Source: an uncultured Candidatus Saccharibacteria bacterium (lineage in GTDB: Bacteria > Patescibacteriota > Minisyncoccia > Phycocordibacterales > CSBR16-119). Taken from it: a DNA stretch of 64,000 nucleotides. Of this stretch, positions 27,412 through 63,404 are shown in pieces; the first letter of the stretch is position 1; the number at the start of each line of letters is the position of its first letter. A program made the position numbers and the translations under genes. The notes beneath the pieces are model-generated. The model was given only the letters and a program-made list of their open reading frames with translations. It was not told where the DNA came from and made no database searches. The stretch is from assembly GCA_964531475.1 (NCBI GenBank), contig CAZHCS010000002.1:4548-68547 (forward strand), written 5' to 3'.

Positions 27412-27444
27412 CAAAAAAGCCCCGCGTGAGCGGGGCTTTCGGTT
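27412..27444. terminator. Bidirectional terminator after recA (A-run/hairpin/T-run)
   Basis: aaaaaagccccgcg-tga-gcggggctttcgg; stronger T-run on the minus strand (TTTTTTG). Confidence 0.65.
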
Positions 27445-27725
27445 GGCTTTCTCGCCGACCGCTCCTGTTTGTAATACAGGAGTAAAATATTGTGATTCCC
27501 TTTCGGGAAATTGTACAAAGGAACTTCGGTCCTCGGCGGAGCAGCGTAAGCTGCTCCGCACGAGAACTATACTCCCAGCTCGACACCAAGATCTATGCTG
27601 GAAAATCGGACAGCGGGCTAACGGGGTTGGACCACACGGGATCCCCTTTCTTCTTTCCCTCGTTGGCATGGGAGCTTGACGATAGTCTACGCCATCCCCA
27701 GCTTGCATAATGCCTTGGCTAACCA
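27440..27725 (-). ncRNA. Candidate structured RNA A (unknown family) ending in an intrinsic terminator on the minus strand; shares a 24-nt module with candidate B
   Basis: No ORF; multiple hairpins; the exact 24-mer GTGATTCCCTTTCGGGAAATTGTA at 27493-27516 recurs at 39235-39258. Confidence 0.35.
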
Positions 27726-27793: not shown

Positions 27794-27863
27794 GCACACA
27801 CACCTACTTTTTGATGGGCTTCGCCATGCGCCTTTGGCGCAATCAAAAAGTAGGTGTGTGTGC
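27794..27863. repeat. Palindromic repeat element, copy 1 (inverted relative to copies 2 and 3)
   Basis: cacacacctactttttgat...gcgcctttggcgc...atcaaaaagtaggtgtgtg. Confidence 0.7.
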
Positions 27864-30470: not shown

Positions 30471-30545
30471 CCACACCTACTTTTTCATTGCGCCAAAAGG
30501 CGCCGGACATTGCCCATAAAAAAGTAGGTGTGGGGGCACACCCTC
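30471..30545. repeat. Palindromic repeat element, copy 2
   Basis: cacacctactttttcat-tgcgccaaaaggcgcc...-ataaaaaagtaggtgtgg. Confidence 0.7.
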
Positions 30546-31740: not shown

Positions 31741-31907
31741 AATAGTTTTTAGATTTTAATAGACGTATATTAGCATTCTGTGCCTCAAAATCAAATTAGT
31801 TTATCTCTTACTTTTGTCTTGAAACAAAAGCTCAAGACTCTGGAGAAAACGCCCACTCCTGACAAAGCGGGTGTCAATGTACCCCCCCTCCAACCAGACG
31901 AAGCAGA

Positions 31908-31987
31908 CCGGGCAAAATTCGAATCCCGAGGACCTAGTGCGAGGCGAAGCCAAAGACACGCTCCCGCAGGGTGAGAATTTTGCCCGG
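31908..31987 (-). promoter_or_regulatory. Conserved-core element X within a 13-bp terminator-like stem, 12 nt downstream of the 31999 stop and upstream of ndk
   Basis: ccgggcaaaattc-[GAATCCCGAGGACCTAG...CCCGCAGGGTGAGAA]-ttttgcccgg; core shared with 37491-37558. Confidence 0.5.
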
Positions 31988-31998
31988 ACTGCGAAGCA

Positions 31999-34734
31999 CT
32001 ATATCTTCATAAACTTATCCATCACCTCTTTCTCCACCTCATCGCGTGGCCTTCCATATTTCAAGAAAGAAAGTTCCTTGAGCGATTCGACAATGTCGGG
32101 ATTGCCAGCTGGAAGGTCCGGCGTACGGATGTTGAAAGGCTTGGCCGGAACGCCGTTCATAAGCATGCTGACATACGCGTTTCGGTTATCGAGTTTCAAA
32201 ATATCCTGCGTCGTAAAGACTGGCTCGAGACGTTTTACCAGGACTTCAGCATCTTCGGAAGAGATGCGAAATACCGCCATCGAGCCGACGTTCCCCAAGA
32301 CAGCGTTACGGATATCATCCGAGAGCTGCGAGAGGTATTGGTGTGCGACGTTCAAGCCGAGCTTGTATTTGCGCGCTTCGGAGAGGATGGACGAAATCGA
32401 CGGCGTCGTGAAGTTTTGGAATTCGTCTATGTAGAGATAGAACGGTGGGAAATCTACGCCGTGACTGTCGGCACGCGAGAGCGCGGCCATCTGAATCTTG
32501 CCGACTAGGATTAGGCCGAGCAAGTTGGCATTTATGTCGCCAAGCCTTCCCTTCGAAAGATTTACGAGCAAGATTTTTTTCTTGTCGAGGATTTCGCGGA
32601 AGTTGAAGCTCGATTTTTCCTGCGCAATGATCGGCCGCATGATTTCGTTCGAGATAAAGGTGTCGAATTTTGACGTGATGTACGGCACAAAGTTCTCGAG
32701 GCCTTGCTCGCCTGTCGTCGCCTCGGCCGTCTTCCAGAATTGCTTGATGATCGGATTTGTACAGCGTTCGAGTTTCATATCGCGGAATTTTTTATCAGAG
32801 AGAACACGTCCGATTTCTAGAATCGTATTGCCAGAGGCTGGGTCAGACATAACTAGTCCGGCGGAATTTTTGAAATATTGCTCAAAGAGCGGACCGCCGG
32901 CTGTTTTCATGTCAAAGAGCTGACTAAAGATACCGAGGAGTTCGTTGATGACAAGCGTCTTTTGTTCCGGACGCTCTGGATCAAATTCGAGCATGTTGAG
33001 CCCCATCGGACGCGCCGTCGATGCCGGGTCAAAATATATGACGTCGTCGATGCGCTCTTTCGGTATGTAAGAAAGAATCTTCTGAATATCAGAACCGTGC
33101 GGATCGATGTAGCAAACACCGTCGCCGCGCTCGATGTCTTGGCGTATCATGTTCATGAGAATACCTGTCTTACCGGTACCAGTCTGACCAATGACATAGA
33201 AATGCCGCATGCGGTCTATTTCGGACAAGAAAATATCCGTTTCGGTTCCGCGATAACTGTTTATACCAATACGCACACCCGAAGAACCGATATCAAGAGG
33301 AGCCGGCGCGACGCCTGATTTGCCTTCGCGAAGCTCTGGAGAACCTGTCGCGCCGGCCGGAAAATGCACAAGAGTTGCAAGCTCACGCAAGTTGAGCGGC
33401 AACGCCGTCTCGGCTGGCAAACGAAATGTAAACGAGTGCAGCAAACGGTCGATTTCGCGCTCCCCTGCTCGATTCCAGACCAAAGCATTACCGTTCGGCC
33501 GAGCAAACTGCGAGAACGCCGATTCGATATCGTTCATGATCTCGCGTGTACGTTCGGCGCGCGGCGAAGATGCCACGATGCGGATGTTTGCAACAACAAT
33601 ACTAGACTTGATCTTTTCCCCGATCTCACCAACCACGACGTCATCGATATGCTTTTCCTCGGCGGGCTTGTCTTTTGGTTTTGAAGAAAAAATGCTCGAA
33701 GCAAACGCCTTTAATTCTTTTTTAGTCTCGTAGTAGTCATCGAGTGCGTTCTTGAGCGAAGTGCCTTTTTTAACTTTCTCGAGCGTCTTGGAAAACTTGT
33801 CTACATACTTCATGCCAGCCGGCATGATGAGGAATTGAATAGCTGCGCCTTCGCGAGTCTTGTCGAGTTTACCAAGAGCCGCAAGAAGAGCTTGGAGCGG
33901 ATCATGATCAAATGCTTCGTAAGTCAAGAGTGGAAAAACGTCGTCTTTTGCAAATGATGCCGTTGCCCCGCCTACCGTACCGCCTGGAATAAACACATTG
34001 TAGTCGTCGGAGACTTGGCGGACTTTCGCCCCGTGATAAAACGCGAGCACCTGCTTTTCGAGCAATGTGCGACGTTCTGTCGGGACGGAAACGTAAAAAA
34101 CAATTTCTGGGCTGTCGTGCGAAACGGCAAGTTCGAGAGTAAAATATTGCTTGTAAGGGTCGTTTGAAACAACACCTATGCTCTGCATGCCGGCAAAAAA
34201 CTGCTCCATACCAGAGAGAAGCTCCTTGAGGCTTTTCTGTTTGCCATCGGCTGACGACTCGGGCGGGAGCGTAATCTCAAAGAGCGACAAGTGAAGCGAC
34301 TGCCATTCTGGGTTGCGTTCGGAAAGCCCCGGCACCGAACCAGAGGCATGCAAAAACTGTACGAGGAAACGGTGGAAATCGTCTTCGATATGCGGATTTT
34401 TCATTCGAGCAATGACATCGAGAGTGTTCTTGATGCCGCGCTCCAAAAGCATGCCGTATAGTTCTTCTATAGCACTGTCATGCTCTTCGGGCCGCAACGC
34501 AAGTGTCATGGCTTCGGTTTCAGATGGTGTCGCGCGATATGATTCGTGCAAGACATCTTTGGTATCGGCTTTTTTGTAGGCAGAAATTGTCTCGTGCGTC
34601 ACCTCCGCGCGCGAACGTTCGAGCCCGCGCTCGGCGTTCGCACGCTCCTGCTCGGCCACGCGTTCGCGCAAATACACAAGCTCCTCTTCCGGAGATTTGA
34701 ATTGCGTCGTTTCCCTGCCAATACCGCCTTCCAT
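31999..34734 (-). CDS. Large P-loop ATPase, TraG/VirD4/HerA-like (DUF87-type) with an approximately 500-aa unassigned N-terminal region
   Basis: Walker A FYVIGQTGTGKTGILMN; Walker B FYLYIDEFQNF; C-terminal EARKYKLGLNVAHQYLSQLSDDIRNAVLGNVGSMAVFRISSEDAEVL resembles coupling-protein C-termini. Confidence 0.55.
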   Translation of the reverse strand: MEGGIGRETTQFKSPEEELVYLRERVAEQERANAERGLERSRAEVTHETISAYKKADTKDVLHESYRATPSETEAMTLALRPEEHDSAIEELYGMLLERGIKNTLDVIARMKNPHIEDDFHRFLVQFLHASGSVPGLSERNPEWQSLHLSLFEITLPPESSADGKQKSLKELLSGMEQFFAGMQSIGVVSNDPYKQYFTLELAVSHDSPEIVFYVSVPTERRTLLEKQVLAFYHGAKVRQVSDDYNVFIPGGTVGGATASFAKDDVFPLLTYEAFDHDPLQALLAALGKLDKTREGAAIQFLIMPAGMKYVDKFSKTLEKVKKGTSLKNALDDYYETKKELKAFASSIFSSKPKDKPAEEKHIDDVVVGEIGEKIKSSIVVANIRIVASSPRAERTREIMNDIESAFSQFARPNGNALVWNRAGEREIDRLLHSFTFRLPAETALPLNLRELATLVHFPAGATGSPELREGKSGVAPAPLDIGSSGVRIGINSYRGTETDIFLSEIDRMRHFYVIGQTGTGKTGILMNMIRQDIERGDGVCYIDPHGSDIQKILSYIPKERIDDVIYFDPASTARPMGLNMLEFDPERPEQKTLVINELLGIFSQLFDMKTAGGPLFEQYFKNSAGLVMSDPASGNTILEIGRVLSDKKFRDMKLERCTNPIIKQFWKTAEATTGEQGLENFVPYITSKFDTFISNEIMRPIIAQEKSSFNFREILDKKKILLVNLSKGRLGDINANLLGLILVGKIQMAALSRADSHGVDFPPFYLYIDEFQNFTTPSISSILSEARKYKLGLNVAHQYLSQLSDDIRNAVLGNVGSMAVFRISSEDAEVLVKRLEPVFTTQDILKLDNRNAYVSMLMNGVPAKPFNIRTPDLPAGNPDIVESLKELSFLKYGRPRDEVEKEVMDKFMKI

Positions 34735-37423: not shown

Positions 37424-37490
37424 GAGATTAGTATACAGTATTTAGTATACGGTATACAGTATGGGTTTTACGTTCCGACTCAGCGTAGCA

Positions 37491-37558
37491 AAAATGCCGA
37501 TTTTCGAATCCCGAGGACCTAGCATAGCGATCCCGCAGGGTGAGAAAATCGGCATTTT
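37491..37558 (-). promoter_or_regulatory. Conserved-core element Y within a 15-bp terminator-like stem plus U-run, 12 nt downstream of the rpsR stop and 67 nt upstream of adk
   Basis: aaaatgccgattttc-[GAATCCCGAGGACCTAG..CCCGCAGGGTGAGAA]-aatcggcatttt. Confidence 0.5.
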
Positions 37559-37569
37559 GCGAAGCCTCT

Positions 37570-37767: not shown

Positions 37768-37845
37768 TTTTATAGTTATTAGTGTCTAGTGAATAGTGGC
37801 TAGTGCTTCACTTCTAATCACTAGAAGTTAGTCACTAGTCACTCA

Positions 37846-38938: not shown

Positions 38939-39127
38939 GGTTATGAGTAAGTAATAAGTAGAAAGTCGTAAGTCGCACGAATTCCTATTTTAATAATTGA
39001 TAATTTTGGCAAAACCCGCCTTCGCCAAGGCTAAGTCGGGCAAAGAAAAAACGCTCGTATCGGACCTAGCGGCGGCCTCACTCAAGGGCAGCCGAACGAA
39101 ACGTTGTTGAGATATTATCACGTATGT

Positions 39128-39413
39128 ATAAAAACACAAGAGCCGCGAAAATTCGCGGCTCCAGCACGTTCCGGTTCAAAACACGGTTCGTGTACCTTAG
39201 TACGCCAGACTGAGCTGTTGCGGTTCAGGGTGTCGTGATTCCCTTTCGGGAAATTGTATCTAAAGAACCAGTTCATCCCACGGCAGGCGGAGAGTGTCCC
39301 CACCCTCCTCTCCTGCCGGGAATGATTCTTCACGACGATCGATCGGGCCCATCGGGGCCCCTTCTTACAGGACTTCTGTGTCAACCGACGTCGGAAAATT
39401 TATAGCATGCCGA
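39128..39413 (-). ncRNA. Candidate structured RNA B (unknown family) directly downstream of tatD, ending in an intrinsic terminator; shares a 24-nt module with candidate A
   Basis: Terminator gagccgcg-aattt-cgcggctc plus TTGTGTTTTTA on the minus strand; 24-mer at 39235-39258; the only ORF is a low-complexity 88-aa frame. Confidence 0.35.
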
Positions 39414-40265
39414 CTATTTTGAGTCAATACCAAAAAGCGTAGCCATATTTTTGAGTAGTTTAAGCCGAACTTCTTCTGTGTCGAGGTCCTTGATCTCAGC
39501 GATTTTCTTTACCGTCTCTTCTACCATCCACGGCTCACAGTCTTTTCCACGATACGGTACAGGTGCGACGAACGGCGCGTCGGTTTCCGAGAGGATTCGG
39601 TCGATAGGAGTAATCTTTAAGACTTCGTCATAGTCACGAGCAAACGTGATAACGCCTGTGAACGACAGATAAAAACCAAGTTTCAGAAACCTCTCGGCAA
39701 TAGCGGGCGTTCCAACAAAGAAATGCACGTCTCCGCGCAACCCCACAGGTCTTGCCTGTGTAGTAGATTCCAAGATTTCCAAGACATCTTCATACGCATC
39801 CATAGTTCCCTTTTGCGGACGGATATGGAGTATGAGCGGCAAGTTTTTCTCGATTGCCAAATCAATTTGTTGTATAAAAATTTCTTTCTGCAAATTCTTC
39901 GTCGCTATATCATTCTCATCAATTCTGAAATAATCAAGCCCACATTCGCCAATAGCGACGACTTTTTCCTTCCCAGCAAGCTCGCGGAATTTCTCCATCG
40001 TCACGCCGAAGCTTTCAGTGTAGGCGGAGCCAGCATCACTCGATGCTTTCGCCAAAGGCTCAAGCATGGCACAGGGATGAAACCCGACGGACGCAAAAAG
40101 GTTTGCACTTAGTGGCGCGATTCGTACAGCTTCGGCTGAAGTTTCGTAATCGGTTCCGACAGTGATAGTGCCGATTTCTTTTTCTTCGAGGATTTTAATA
40201 ATCTCTTCCTTGCGCTCGGCAAGTGGCGAGAGATTTAAGTGCGAATGAATATCGAAATATTTCAT
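39414..40265 (-). CDS. tatD: TatD-family metal-dependent hydrolase/DNase
   Basis: MKYFDIHSHLNLSP... conserved His/Glu/Asp ligands across the TIM barrel. Confidence 0.85.
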   Translation of the reverse strand: MKYFDIHSHLNLSPLAERKEEIIKILEEKEIGTITVGTDYETSAEAVRIAPLSANLFASVGFHPCAMLEPLAKASSDAGSAYTESFGVTMEKFRELAGKEKVVAIGECGLDYFRIDENDIATKNLQKEIFIQQIDLAIEKNLPLILHIRPQKGTMDAYEDVLEILESTTQARPVGLRGDVHFFVGTPAIAERFLKLGFYLSFTGVITFARDYDEVLKITPIDRILSETDAPFVAPVPYRGKDCEPWMVEETVKKIAEIKDLDTEEVRLKLLKNMATLFGIDSK

Positions 40266-46580: not shown

Positions 46581-49500
46581 TATTTTGATATCTTCACTTC
46601 TTCCCCACCAAATGAAATATCTTTGATACCCGCAGTTTTCTTGAGTTCGTCTTCGAATCCGGTAATCACGTCTTTTTGGTTCTCTGGGATAGTGAGGCTG
46701 ACCATTTCACTTGGCAAAAGATTTTGGTCTTTGCGCATACCCTGCACACCCCGCAAGAATTCTCGAAAATCGCCTTCGCGTTTGAGTTCAGGAGTTATTT
46801 CCGTATCCAGAAAGACTCCTGGTTTTTCTTCTCCTAGATTTTCCAGAACAACATTTTTCACATTTATCTCATCAGCGATGATTTCGGTTACTTCATTCCA
46901 AAAAGGAATAGATCCGAAATCATGCTTTATAGAAAGCTTAGAAAGAGGTTGTCGAACTTTAATACCTGATTTTTGTCTCTGTTCAAGCCCCATTGTTACA
47001 AAGTTCCTCGCATGTTGCATGGTCGCTAATATTTCTGTATTAGATTTCTTCCCTTCTGGCCACTTGGCAAGATGCGCCGATTCTTCATCACGTTCGTTGC
47101 GCAGTGTTTGCCAAATATCTTCTGCCGCGAACGGCGCGAATGGGGCCAAGAGTCTCGCAATAGTTTTTAAGACATGATACAGAGTCGCCTTGGCATCAGT
47201 ATCACCATCCTTGAGACGGTCACGAGAGCGTCGCAAGTACCAAGTAGACAAGTCGTCAATGAAATCACGCAACGCACGAACTGGCTCGAGGAGTTTGTAT
47301 GAGTTCAGGCTTTCCGTCATGGAGTTCGTGAGCTCATTGAGCCGCTCAAGGATCCAGATATCGAGCACGTTGTGAGTGGCTAGTGAATAGTGACTAGCTT
47401 CTAGTGAACGATCGCGATAGAGTTCGTAGAACGCCAGCACGTTATAAAGCAGATTGAATACTTTGTTGCGAAGCTCTGCAACAGTTTTCTCATCGAAATT
47501 CTTTGAATCGCCCGGTTGATTGACCGAATACATCCAGAGGCGCAGCGTATCGACGCCGTACTTATCCATCATCTCCCACGGGTTGACGATGTTACCGATA
47601 GACTTACTCATCTTCTTGCCTTTGGCATCGAGAATATGCCCGAGACAAATGCAGTTTTTGTAAGCCTTGCCTTTACCCATGAGCGCGCCCACGGCGTGAA
47701 GCGTATAGAACCAGCCACGCGTCTGATCGACAGCTTCGGAAATAAAGTCTGCCGGATAACCCCTGCCTTTCGAGAGGAATCCGCCATCAATATACTTCTT
47801 GTTCTCGAACGGATAGTGATGTTGCGCGAATGGCATAGCGCCAGAGTCGAACCAAACATCCATGACTTCTTTTACACGACGGAATTCCTTGCCATCCTTT
47901 TCGAGCACAATGTCATCGATAAACGGACGGTGAAGATCGAGCTCTCTACTTGTCGAATTATCAACGTAGGCCTTTAAAATTTTTCCGTTATCTATCTGGT
48001 GGAACAATTTCATCGCTTCGTGATTATCGAGCCCGCGTAAAAGCTTGAACGCTATTTCATTCGTCCCCTGATGAGCAAAACAAACGATCGTTTTGCCAGC
48101 GTATTTCACCAACACCTCATCGAGGAAATTTTTTACTCGCGCTTCAAGGTCGGCCCAGCTTTCGCCAGTGTCACCACGTTTTACCAAAAATCTTTCATCT
48201 GTCGGCAATGCCTTGTACGCATCACGCGAAGCTTTGATTGCCGGATCATCTTGTGTCTGTTCTTCCCAGTTACCACTCTGTATCTCTCCGAGACGATCAT
48301 CAATGACAATATCAGCACTATCTGCATAAGCGCTTGCTGTCTGTCGGGAGCGCAGAATCGGTGAAGAAAATATAATGTCTGGTTTCTCGTCAGCCAATTT
48401 TTCTGCTGCTTCGGCTGCCTGCTTGCGACCAAGGGCTGTCAGCGGATGCTTGTCATGAGCAGAAGACGACATACGCATAACATTGTGTTCGGCCTCGCCA
48501 TGACGAACAAAAATTATCTTTGTGATTGACTGTTTTGAATAGGCCCGCAATGTTTCGACAGAATCAACAACCAATCGCTCCCCGTCCTCGCTCATCCAGA
48601 CCGGCAACGGCGTACCCCAATAACGCTCGCGCGAAATTGCCCAGTCTTTGATGTCTTTGAGCCACTCGCCGAAACGGCCATCACGAATATGAGACGGCTC
48701 CCAATTGATCGATTTATTTTCCTCTACCATTTCGTCGCGAAGTTCCGACATGCGGATGTACCACGAATCACGGGCGTAGTAGACAAGCGGCGTCTTGCAG
48801 CGCCAACAATGCGGGTATGTGTGTTCGTAATTTTTCTTGGCATAAAAGAGTCCGCGCGCAGTCAGGTCGTTGATGACGTCGACTGCAAGCGTCGGTTTAC
48901 CATTCTCGTCTTTTTCCATGGCGAACCTGCCAGAAAAGAATCCGGTGTTTGGTAGAAATTTACCATCGAGTCCGACAACGTGTTCTTTTGGAAGCCCTGC
49001 TTTCGTACCAAGCTCGAAGTCATCCTGGCCGTACATCGGCGCAATGTGAACAATGCCCGTACCGTCAACGGTTGTAACAAAATCGGCAACATAAACTTTG
49101 TGAGATTTGTCGTTTGGCTTGACGAAGTCATAGAGCGGCGCGTATTCCATTCCAGCCATCTCACTTCCCTTGTGTTCGGCGATGATTTCGTACGGTTCGG
49201 CGATGACCGAGAGGCGCTCTTTGGCAACAACTAAAATTTCTTCGCCCACTTTGGCTTCAACATAATCGATATCTGCACCGACAGCGAGCGCGACGTTCCC
49301 CGGAAGCGTCCACGGTGTCGTCGTCCAGGCGACGAAGTATGCTTTGACGAAACCTTTGATCGGAAACTTCGCAAAGATCGAGAGGTCTTTGACGTCTTCA
49401 TAACCCTGCGCGAGTTCATGACTTGCAAGTGGTGTTCCGCAGCGCGAACACCACGGTACGATACGGTAGTCTTTGTACAAAAGTCCGCGCTTCTCTACAT

Positions 49501-53930: not shown

Positions 53931-54062
53931 TTGCGAACGCCGAGGAAGCGGTAGTTGCGATTCCAGTCATTGTCGAACCAATTCAGGTTCAGGTTACGCT
54001 TCGAATCGTTCCTGTTGAGGTAAGCCACGTTGCGGTTGCCATTGATCTTGGCCACGGAGCCA
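53931..54062 (-). repeat. DGR template repeat (TR), 132 bp
   Basis: Matches 54401-54532 at 112/132 positions; 19 of 20 mismatches have A on the minus strand in this copy; the VR reading frame translated over TR gives Asn-rich VAYLNRNDSKRNLNLNWFDNDWNRNYRFLG. Confidence 0.85.
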
Positions 54063-54305
54063 TGTGTGACGCGCCATCTAGTTCACCACCCTTCGAGTCG
54101 GAGAAACTGAAAACCCTCAAGGCTGAATCGTATTCGCAACCTTATATGTTGCAGAGCATGTCACACCAACTTTTCTCTGGTTTTTGTTCTGAATTCCTCC
54201 TGACACTCTTTTGAAAACCGTGGCCTTCAAAACTCTCGCCAAGAGGCATGCGGACAAATTACCCAAAGCCGTGACCTTAGATTTCTCATTTGTCGAAATT
54301 ATTGT

Positions 54306-54396: not shown

Positions 54397-54999
54397 CTAT
54401 TTGCGACCGCCGAGGAAGCGGTAGTAGCGACTCCAGTCATCGTCGAACCAATGCAGGAGCAGGAAACGCTCCGAACCGCGCCTGCTGAGGCAAGCCACGC
54501 TGCGGTCGCCACCGATCTCGGCCACGGAGCCGAGTGCCACGATCGGGTACTTCCGCTGTTCTTCGGGCAAGGCTGCGCCATACGCAAGGAGCTCCTCGAT
54601 CTTGGCTGGCCGGAACCCGTCCTTCTCCATCTCTTTGATCGCGTTCTCCGAAGAGATGTCGCGGTCGAAGTGGAAGAGTTTGGGTTCGAAACCCACTTTG
54701 CCGGTGCCGGACAGCGGGAAGCGCTTCGCCGTGATGTCGTCGTTCTTCCAGTCGTAGTTGCCGGCGGCGATCATCTGCTCGAGCGTCATGCCATAGTCCA
54801 CGAAGAACTTCATGTCGAGCGGCGAGAGGTTGAGCACCTTGCGCAGCGCTTCACGATCGATCTGCGTCGGATCGGCTTCGATGAGGTCAGCGAGCGAGCC
54901 GTTCGTGAGCAAGGATTGGAATCCTTGATGGTCCTTGCCTTTTGCTTCGAGCAATGTGGCGAGGCTGGCCAGTTGGCCTGAAGTGAATGCGGTTTTCAT
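54397..54999 (-). CDS. DGR target (variable) protein with C-terminal VR
   Basis: 200 aa; C-terminus ...VACLSRRGSERFLLLHWFDDDWSRYYRFLGGRK* encoded by VR; the stop codon lies at the VR 3' boundary. Confidence 0.8.
   Translation of the reverse strand: MKTAFTSGQLASLATLLEAKGKDHQGFQSLLTNGSLADLIEADPTQIDREALRKVLNLSPLDMKFFVDYGMTLEQMIAAGNYDWKNDDITAKRFPLSGTGKVGFEPKLFHFDRDISSENAIKEMEKDGFRPAKIEELLAYGAALPEEQRKYPIVALGSVAEIGGDRSVACLSRRGSERFLLLHWFDDDWSRYYRFLGGRK
54401..54532 (-). repeat. DGR variable repeat (VR), 132 bp, inside the 3' end of the target gene
   Basis: See the TR entry; substitutions occur only where TR has adenine on the coding strand. Confidence 0.85.
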
Positions 55000-62757: not shown

Positions 62758-62822
62758 CTCACACCTACTTTTTGATCGCGCCAAAGGCGCTTGGCGGAGC
62801 CCATCAAAAAGTGGGTGTGGAG
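62758..62822. repeat. Palindromic repeat element, copy 3
   Basis: ctcacacctactttttgat-cgcgccaaaggcgc...-atcaaaaagtgggtgtggag. Confidence 0.7.
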
Positions 62823-62972
62823 ACAAACCCCTTCCCCCTCCCAGCGAAGCAGACACGTCATTAAAAAGGGCTTACCGCAGGCGCGTGTTTACAAACGCGC
62901 CGAGGTAGAGGAAAGCCCGCCTTATGAATGGCGGGTTATTCCGTGCCTTTTTAATGATGTGGCTGCGAAGCG

Positions 62973-63404
62973 CTACTTTACTTCTATACCCATCGACCTG
63001 CACTGCCCTTCCAAAATCTTCACGGCAGCGTCAACGGAATTTGCCGACAAATCATTCATTTTTACTTCGGCGATCTCGGCAAGCTTGGCGCGAGTGATGC
63101 TGCCGGCCTTTTTCGTGGCGTTCTTTCCAGAACCCTTTTCAAGTCCAGCTGCTTTTAGAATCATAGGTCCTGTAAGCGGGGTTTTAGCGTCAAACTCGTA
63201 AGTGCGGTCTTCAAAGACGCGAAGCTTGACCGAAACCTTGCCCATACCCATCATGCCCTTTGTGCGATCATTGAATTCGGTCACAAAAGCGGCAATAGGA
63301 ATACCGGCCTGACCAATAGCGGGTCCGACTGGAGGAGCCGGGGTCGCGCGGCCAGCCTCGATCTGTAATTTAACGTTTTTTACTACTTTCTTTTTGGATG
63401 CCAT
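62973..63404 (-). CDS. rplK: 50S ribosomal protein L11
   Basis: VKLQIEAGRATPAPPVGPAIGQAGIPIAAFVTEFNDRTK. Confidence 0.95.
   Translation of the reverse strand: MASKKKVVKNVKLQIEAGRATPAPPVGPAIGQAGIPIAAFVTEFNDRTKGMMGMGKVSVKLRVFEDRTYEFDAKTPLTGPMILKAAGLEKGSGKNATKKAGSITRAKLAEIAEVKMNDLSANSVDAAVKILEGQCRSMGIEVK

Follow-up and report, generated by a model that had tools for sequence, protein, structure and literature searches.

The DNA analysed here, a 64,000-nt stretch that we call the window, comes from a bacterium whose TatD homologues place it among the Parcubacteria/Paceibacteria-like CPR bacteria (the names on more distant homologues are Parcubacteria, Wolfebacteria and Paceibacteria). Two of its intergenic regions are considered. 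Region A lies 3′ of both a SLOG (LOG-like) gene and the convergent recA, and region B lies between tatD and rpsF; these neighbours are those named in an earlier note on the same DNA, and metG is also identified. Shuffled controls fold much less stably than either region (z = −4.24 for A and −7.40 for B). Each has a promoter-like site and a Rho-independent terminator on the same strand, as expected of a stand-alone sRNA gene, the signals being sequence matches only. The two minus-strand terminators that had been pointed out are present, at 27412–27439 and 39128–39162.

A 24-mer, GTGATTCCCTTTCGGGAAATTGTA on the plus strand, links the two regions. Exactly two copies exist in the whole 64-kb window, at 27492–27515 (one base away from the 27493–27516 first given) and 39235–39258, with no third even when up to three mismatches are allowed. 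None is expected by chance, there being no match in 100 dinucleotide-preserving shuffles, which agrees with the earlier estimate. With blastn the likeness widens to approximately 34 nt at 91% identity, a span (previously set at 31 nt) that includes GTTC(C)TTT(A)G; beyond it the two regions cannot be aligned, as had been claimed. Identity at 24 of 24 nt within such a block, in RNAs that otherwise cannot be aligned, is the pattern of sibling RNAs. Read on the transcribed strand, the 24-mer consists of a hairpin (P2, UUCCC-GAAA-GGGAA) and its flanks, and with a little more flanking sequence (approximately 37 nt in all) makes up what we term the linker+P2 module. The earlier note had recognized this hairpin but gave its loop as UUUC; the GNRA tetraloop (GAAA) appears only when P2 is read on the minus strand. 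The module copies of A and B are identical within this genome, whereas orthologues elsewhere differ at several positions, a pattern that would fit a short tract of gene conversion as well as co-evolution with some partner specific to the genome.

The predicted transcript at region A, RNA A, is approximately 348 nt long (minus strand, about 27759–27412; 5′ end placed from the promoter-like site, 3′ end from the terminator), so that the unit is larger than the 27440–27725 originally outlined. Passing 3′ from the SLOG stop codon on the minus strand, one meets the SLOG terminator (27917–27895), a perfect 70-nt palindrome (27863–27794), the promoter-like site (27793–27766) and then RNA A. The promoter-like site is unique in the window and combines a −35 TTGACA (27793–27788), a 16-nt spacer and TGn with a −10 TAAGCT (27771–27766). 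Near-identical sites, spacer included, precede units in the related genomes L097 (TTGACAAATATTTTAGGATATGCTAAGCT) and L009 (unit 2), and the site is a putative promoter. RNA A is laid out as a unique 5′ domain, a long hairpin P1, a linker, P2, two 3′ hairpins and the terminator. P1 (27529–27567, minus strand) reads GUUCUCG-U-GCGGAGCAGC UUAC GCUGCUCCGC-CGAGGAC, and its base GUUCUCG/CGAGGAC recurs in L097. The linker (27510–27528, minus strand; CGAAGUUCCUUUGUACAAU) is unpaired in the predicted fold and holds the motif GU(U/A)C(C)UUU; it runs into the minus-strand P2 (27496–27509), which is followed by UCAC. The terminator, GCCCCGC-UCAC-GCGGGGC followed by UUUUUUG on the minus strand, abuts the stop codon of recA.

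The palindrome directly upstream of the RNA A promoter-like site is one of three copies of an element of approximately 65–70 nt (27794–27863, 30472–30538 and 62760–62825), built as CACACCTACTTTTTGAT, a loop containing GCGCCAAAGGCGC, and ATCAAAAAGTAGGTGTG. It is absent from all related loci searched and may be a genome-specific REP-like repeat or a protein-binding palindrome. Beside the third copy lies a hairpin-rich intergenic stretch (62830–62975) with a long inverted repeat, CACGTCATTAAAAAGG...CCTTTTTAATGATGTG, possibly a further structured RNA or else part of a terminator region. The window also holds a 141-nt direct repeat (83% identity; 53931–54071 and 54401–54541, 470 nt apart) and, in or near intergenic DNA, a 29-nt repeat (86% identity; 37775–37803 and 47369–47397; GTTATTAGTGTCTAGTGAATAGTGGCTAG / GTTGTGAGTGGCTAGTGAATAGTGACTAG).

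RNA B is predicted to be approximately 265 nt long (minus strand, about 39392–39128, with a putative start site) and comprises a 5′ domain, P1, linker, P2, 3′ domain and terminator. Its promoter-like site (39399–39427, minus strand) has a −35 TTGACT (39427–39422) that falls inside the end of tatD, a 17-nt spacer, and TGn with a −10 TATAAA (39404–39399); it would be a promoter whose −10 does not end in the customary T. The sequence that comes straight after the stop of tatD, TGCTATAAA, is kept in L010 and L099. P1 (39273–39325, minus strand) reads UCAUUCC-CGGCAGG ... CCUGCCG-U-GGGAUGA, and the linker (39253–39272, minus strand; ACUGGUUCUUUAGAUACAAU) is again unpaired in the predicted fold. The minus-strand P2 lies at 39239–39252 and is likewise followed by UCAC. 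The minus-strand terminator, GAGCCGCG-AAUUUU-CGCGGCUC followed by UUGUGUUUUU, has a GC-rich stem and a U-rich tail and sits in a region that resembles the terminator region of L097 at the same locus. In its 5′ half, RNA B matches L010 with 77% identity across 147 nt. Downstream of this terminator rpsF has a separate promoter and leader.

Both genes flanking RNA B have features of their own. The tatD gene (39414–40265) encodes 283 aa, compared with 260–267 aa in most close homologues, and its C-terminal extension overlaps the −35 of the RNA B promoter-like site, which suggests that the end of tatD has co-evolved with the sRNA cassette. The rpsF leader (approximately 60 nt; 39046–39105, minus strand; AACGUUUCGUUCG...GCUAGGUCCGAUACGAGCGUUUUUU) has its own −10 at about 39111–39121 and occurs in all nine related loci, with or without a preceding sRNA unit. 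In its fold a covarying inner hairpin (GCCC/GGGC, GCCU/AGGC and CUCCC/GGGG) is enclosed by an attenuator-like outer stem that ends with a run of U. It matches no Rfam family and is probably a clade-specific S6:S18 autoregulatory leader.

Syntenic loci of relatives, fetched via TatD and SLOG homologues, contain five further units in four genomes (L097, L099, L010 and a tandem pair in L009). With the two of the window this makes a set of seven units from five genomes (winA, winB, L097, L099, L010, L009u1 and L009u2). At the tatD–rpsF spacer, L011 and L095 have no unit, L096 and L098 a small ORF, L010, L097 and L099 one unit each and L009 its tandem pair; this spacer is a variable hot spot. The SLOG–recA spacer, 558 nt long in the window, shrinks to 33 nt in L092, whose SLOG is 79% identical, and to 74 nt in L093, which marks RNA A as a lineage-specific insertion at that site. 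Since several close relatives (L011, L092/L095, L093, L096 and L098) are without units, any function they have would be dispensable. Further afield, a scan of 185,579 reference genomes for an exact 20-mer core returned five matches, all unrelated (three share one probable coding gene of Saprospiraceae, and the other two are from Cryomorphaceae and Elusimicrobia, respectively). The module core has no match in JGI metagenomes or in viral contigs, and a module HMM together with the covariance model R1 found no members beyond the seven in approximately 1.3 Mb of related DNA.

In L093 the spacer that corresponds to the site of RNA A is occupied by a member of a different family, a long hairpin found immediately 3′ of genes (rpsR, a DUF8128 gene and the SLOG gene). 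The window has copies at about 37480–37560 and about 31900–32000 (minus strand), and others lie in L009 (about 12838), L093 (about 10559) and L094 (about 7329, equivalent to L098 about 19097). Its apex is conserved (CCUGCGGGAUCGC-UAUG-CUAGGUCCUCGG, with stem GGGAUC/GGUCCU and a 9-nt loop), and the outer stems of 13–20 bp differ wholly in sequence between copies while their pairing is kept. GCUUCGC flanks the whole, and no Rfam family matches it.

All seven units share one predicted layout: a variable 5′ domain, the long hairpin P1, an unpaired linker, P2, one or more 3′ hairpins and a terminator. The linker is pyrimidine-rich (GGU(U/A)CUUU), and its motif GU(U/A)C(C)UUU is found in 7/7. P2 has a GNRA loop in three of the seven and a GAAAA pentaloop in L097, and is followed by an AUCAC-like tail. 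L097, at the tatD–rpsF locus, reproduces the A-type promoter-like site nearly exactly and has the base of the A-type P1 together with the module GAAGUUCUUUCGACACCUUCCCGAAAAGGGAAUCAC, and L099 has a B-type promoter-like site and P1 followed by GGUUCUUUUGACUAAUUUCCUGAAAAGGAAUAAU. Changes in P2 fall on both sides of pairs: the loop-closing C-G becomes U-A in L099, a U-A becomes C-G in L009u2 (UCUCC-CUAG-GGGGA) and the outer U-A of L010 is flipped to A-U. In L010 and L009 unit 1, P2 has changed so far, loop included, that it is no longer recognizable; not every unit, therefore, strictly needs the module.

Seven units from five genomes make for weak covariation statistics. RNAalifold on MAFFT alignments of the seven cores did not recover P1, the hairpins being out of register, for which reason P1 was scored within the B-type units only. 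There, all 13 outer pairs of P1 are paired in 4/4 units, with a compensatory change from A-U to G-C; across the four cores, 97% of P1+P2 cells are paired, compared with 41–65% when the partners are slid, and four pairs have changed on both sides. A covariance model built from B-type cores (R1; winB, L010 and L009 unit 1 among its seeds) scores these seeds at 101.5, 100 and 86.2 bits, respectively. It finds winA at full length (35 bits, E = 2e-5) and aligns the long hairpin of RNA A as P1, a match that is not independent evidence because winB is in the seed. With filters off, R1 gives weak matches at the right positions of L097 and L009u2 (about 11–12 bits) and nothing else credible in the window or in approximately 1.3 Mb of related DNA; the window then still has only two copies of the module.

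Segment-by-segment comparison groups the parts of these units in conflicting ways. Among the 5′ domains only those of winB and L010 are related (z = 16), P1 unites only the four B-type units (z = 6–18), and the terminators and 3′ domains join winB with L097 and winA with L009u1 and L099. Linker+P2 is the sole segment common across types (winA, L097, winB and L099; z = 7–15), which argues that the 24-mer is the common core of a family and not an accident of two unrelated RNAs. The units are thus mosaics in which other parts have been exchanged or replaced around linker+P2. The idea that RNA B is a simple chimera, B-type in its 5′ half and A-type in its 3′ half, was softened in view of L099, a B-type unit that natively carries the module; what the segments show is general mosaicism.

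On balance we favour, with some reserve, the reading that A and B are sibling members of a lineage-restricted, fast-evolving and previously undescribed family of structured small RNAs, with their own promoter and terminator and the module as a core acting in trans. The earlier note had raised a family or a shared module, and this gains support from the five further units, from linker+P2 as the only common segment, from the compensatory changes in P1 and P2 and from the lack of any Rfam match. Each unit would be a cassette that opens with a promoter and a variable 5′ domain, continues through P1, the linker and P2 with its AUCAC-like tail, and closes with one or more 3′ hairpins and a terminator. 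We take linker+P2 to be the functional core because A-type and B-type bodies, unrelated in all else, have this segment alone in common. We infer that the RNAs are transcribed and act in trans, with siblings that bear the same module on different bodies serving the same partner under different promoters. P2 and its tail would provide stability, contact with a protein, or both.

For the linker, pairing in trans with targets as a seed can be put forward only tentatively. A conserved unpaired element displayed between stable hairpins is the usual signature of an sRNA seed, and we favour this role because the most conserved unpaired element in the seven units is the pyrimidine-rich linker, which lies between stable hairpins. 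Its targets would be purine-rich (complement AAAG(A/U)ACC). Scanning the 64-kb window for duplexes with the linker seed gave a best value of approximately −20 kcal/mol, compared with −18 to −25 for shuffled seeds.

The main alternative to seed pairing is binding of a protein to the module, and here pairing targets no better than random in the window count in its favour. On this account, which we hold to be rather doubtful, P2 with its GNRA loop, the AUCAC tail and the linker would form a handle for a lineage-specific RNA-binding protein, the RNAs acting as sponge, scaffold or RNP component and the variable domains being either irrelevant or the source of specificity. A module that is identical in two unrelated bodies here and different in other genomes fits co-evolution with a genome-specific partner. 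Against this, the units have no linked gene that could be a candidate partner, neither loop nor tail is conserved in L010 or in either unit of L009, and the RsmY-like Rfam score of the 3′ part of RNA A is weak (21–22 bits, gathering threshold 57) and comes mostly from the terminator.

The mosaic structure also invites an explanation without function, in which the units are largely neutral intergenic cassettes shuffled by recombination and the identical 24–34 nt record a recent, short tract of gene conversion or recombination. Discordant grouping of 5′ domains, P1, module and terminators, free gain and loss between close relatives, and a module more alike between paralogues than between orthologues would all follow. 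We nevertheless consider it unlikely, given that the module is kept across genomes at different loci (winA, winB, L097 and L099) with compensatory changes in P2, and that the units have well-formed promoter-like sites and terminators and a stability far above that of shuffles.

Less probable still are cis-acting parts of mRNAs, with RNA B as the tatD 3′-UTR or as a leader or attenuator of rpsF–ssb–rpsR, and RNA A as a 3′-UTR or an insulator of convergent SLOG and recA transcription. No terminator separates tatD from RNA B, B-type units always lie at tatD–rpsF, and the terminator of RNA A also closes recA. On the other side, the conserved promoter and leader of rpsF persist in genomes without any unit (L011 and L095), and A-type units occupy two unrelated loci (in the window and in L097). 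The 3′-UTR origin proposed in the earlier note accordingly fares differently for the two RNAs: for RNA A it is disfavoured by the SLOG terminator, palindrome and promoter-like site that intervene, and for RNA B co-transcription with tatD is possible as an additional mode.

A lineage-specific RNP seems to us very improbable. In it the P1–linker–P2 core would be a constant protein scaffold and hypervariable 5′ domains would lend specificity, guide- or adaptor-like, with the cassettes recombining. A handle that stays constant on a body that varies, together with mosaicism and with units gained and lost, is compatible with this reading; if true, it would give episymbiotic CPR bacteria a system of the guide or adaptor type.

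Coding potential was considered on both strands. The regions had been called poor in ORFs, which is not strictly so: in each copy the GTG of the 24-mer opens a plus-strand ORF, of 72 aa (27492–27710) in copy A, where an AGGAG motif lies 9 nt upstream, and of 56 aa (from 39235) in copy B. Neither ORF is conserved. Small proteins with a common N terminus are scarcely credible and we reject them: the translations share only their first eight residues, MIPFREIV, encoded by the module, the frame shifts inside the module of L097 to stop after 33 codons, stops after 15 in L009 unit 2 and has no counterpart in L010, and promoter-like sites and terminators face the opposite way. An overlapping minus-strand ORF has no Pfam match, and with these frameshifts and stops in the homologues there is no conserved protein-coding potential on either strand.

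Nor do known RNAs account for the units. Rfam 15 (4,227 covariance models) has no match at gathering score anywhere in the 64-kb window, and the scan of both regions that the earlier note proposed returns, even at E ≤ 10, only sub-threshold matches from terminators and plain hairpins; the L097 and L009 units (E ≤ 1) give nothing beyond terminator-driven noise, and ARAGORN finds neither tRNA nor tmRNA in the window. The note's failure to match known families thus extends to the homologous units, and known or housekeeping RNAs were rejected. A divergent RNase P RNA, tmRNA, SRP RNA, 6S RNA, riboswitch or intron missed by Rfam can hardly be the answer: unit sizes of 265–390 nt would suit an RNase P RNA or a tmRNA, and RNAs of CPR bacteria often depart from the usual forms, but absence from the same sites in the closest relatives, duplication (two units in the window, a tandem pair in L009) and unrelated 5′ domains make an essential single-copy RNA unlikely. 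Three other candidates were set aside. Mimicry of the 16S rRNA 3′ end (h45 + AUCAC) aligns locally no better than shuffles (fraction at or above the score 0.06–0.81); a MITE or other mobile element would have terminal inverted repeats, absent from the unit ends, the sole flanking direct repeat being a chance-level 9-mer; and phage, plasmid and viral collections contain no match.

For sibling trans-acting RNAs, the reading that we prefer, the setting adds interest. CPR bacteria have tiny genomes from which many canonical regulators are missing, and to our knowledge neither the usual sRNA chaperones nor sRNA targets are known in them. As far as we found, no regulatory small RNA or sRNA family has been described for CPR bacteria in the searchable literature. 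Judged by sequence features, these would be stand-alone bacterial sRNAs of a familiar kind that form a previously undescribed family in the CPR. The family is narrow (five genomes so far), its units dispensable and the RNAs candidates, which limits their significance; with gene boundaries, a defined module and natural presence/absence variants, it offers a starting point for CPR metatranscriptomics and target prediction. The units also illustrate how sRNA genes may evolve as mosaics in intergenic hot spots.

Several known systems bear comparison. Like REP and MITE elements, the units are short, structured intergenic sequences that occur more than once and that some close relatives have while others do not; however, only the 24–34-nt core is repeated and not the whole element, terminal inverted repeats are lacking, each copy sits inside a promoter-to-terminator unit, and the true palindromic repeat family of this genome has a different sequence. 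The protein-sequestering CsrB, RsmY and RsmZ RNAs are similar in having multiple hairpins and ending in a terminator, and the 3′ part of RNA A has the weak, terminator-driven RsmY-like score given above, but the present units lack the repeated GGA-in-loop motif and have one module per RNA. The closest concept, drawn from general knowledge, is that of OmrA/OmrB, Qrr1–5 and LhrC, which are sibling (paralogous) trans-acting sRNAs, each with its own promoter and Rho-independent terminator, that share a near-identical short segment. Here too two predicted stand-alone genes in one genome have a short segment in common while the rest has diverged. RNAs A and B differ from these siblings in that they have no homology of sequence or structure to any of them (no Rfam match), are much longer (265–350 nt) and heavily structured, and share an internal linker and hairpin in place of a 5′ seed; they are, moreover, mosaics that change locus between genomes, in a CPR host.
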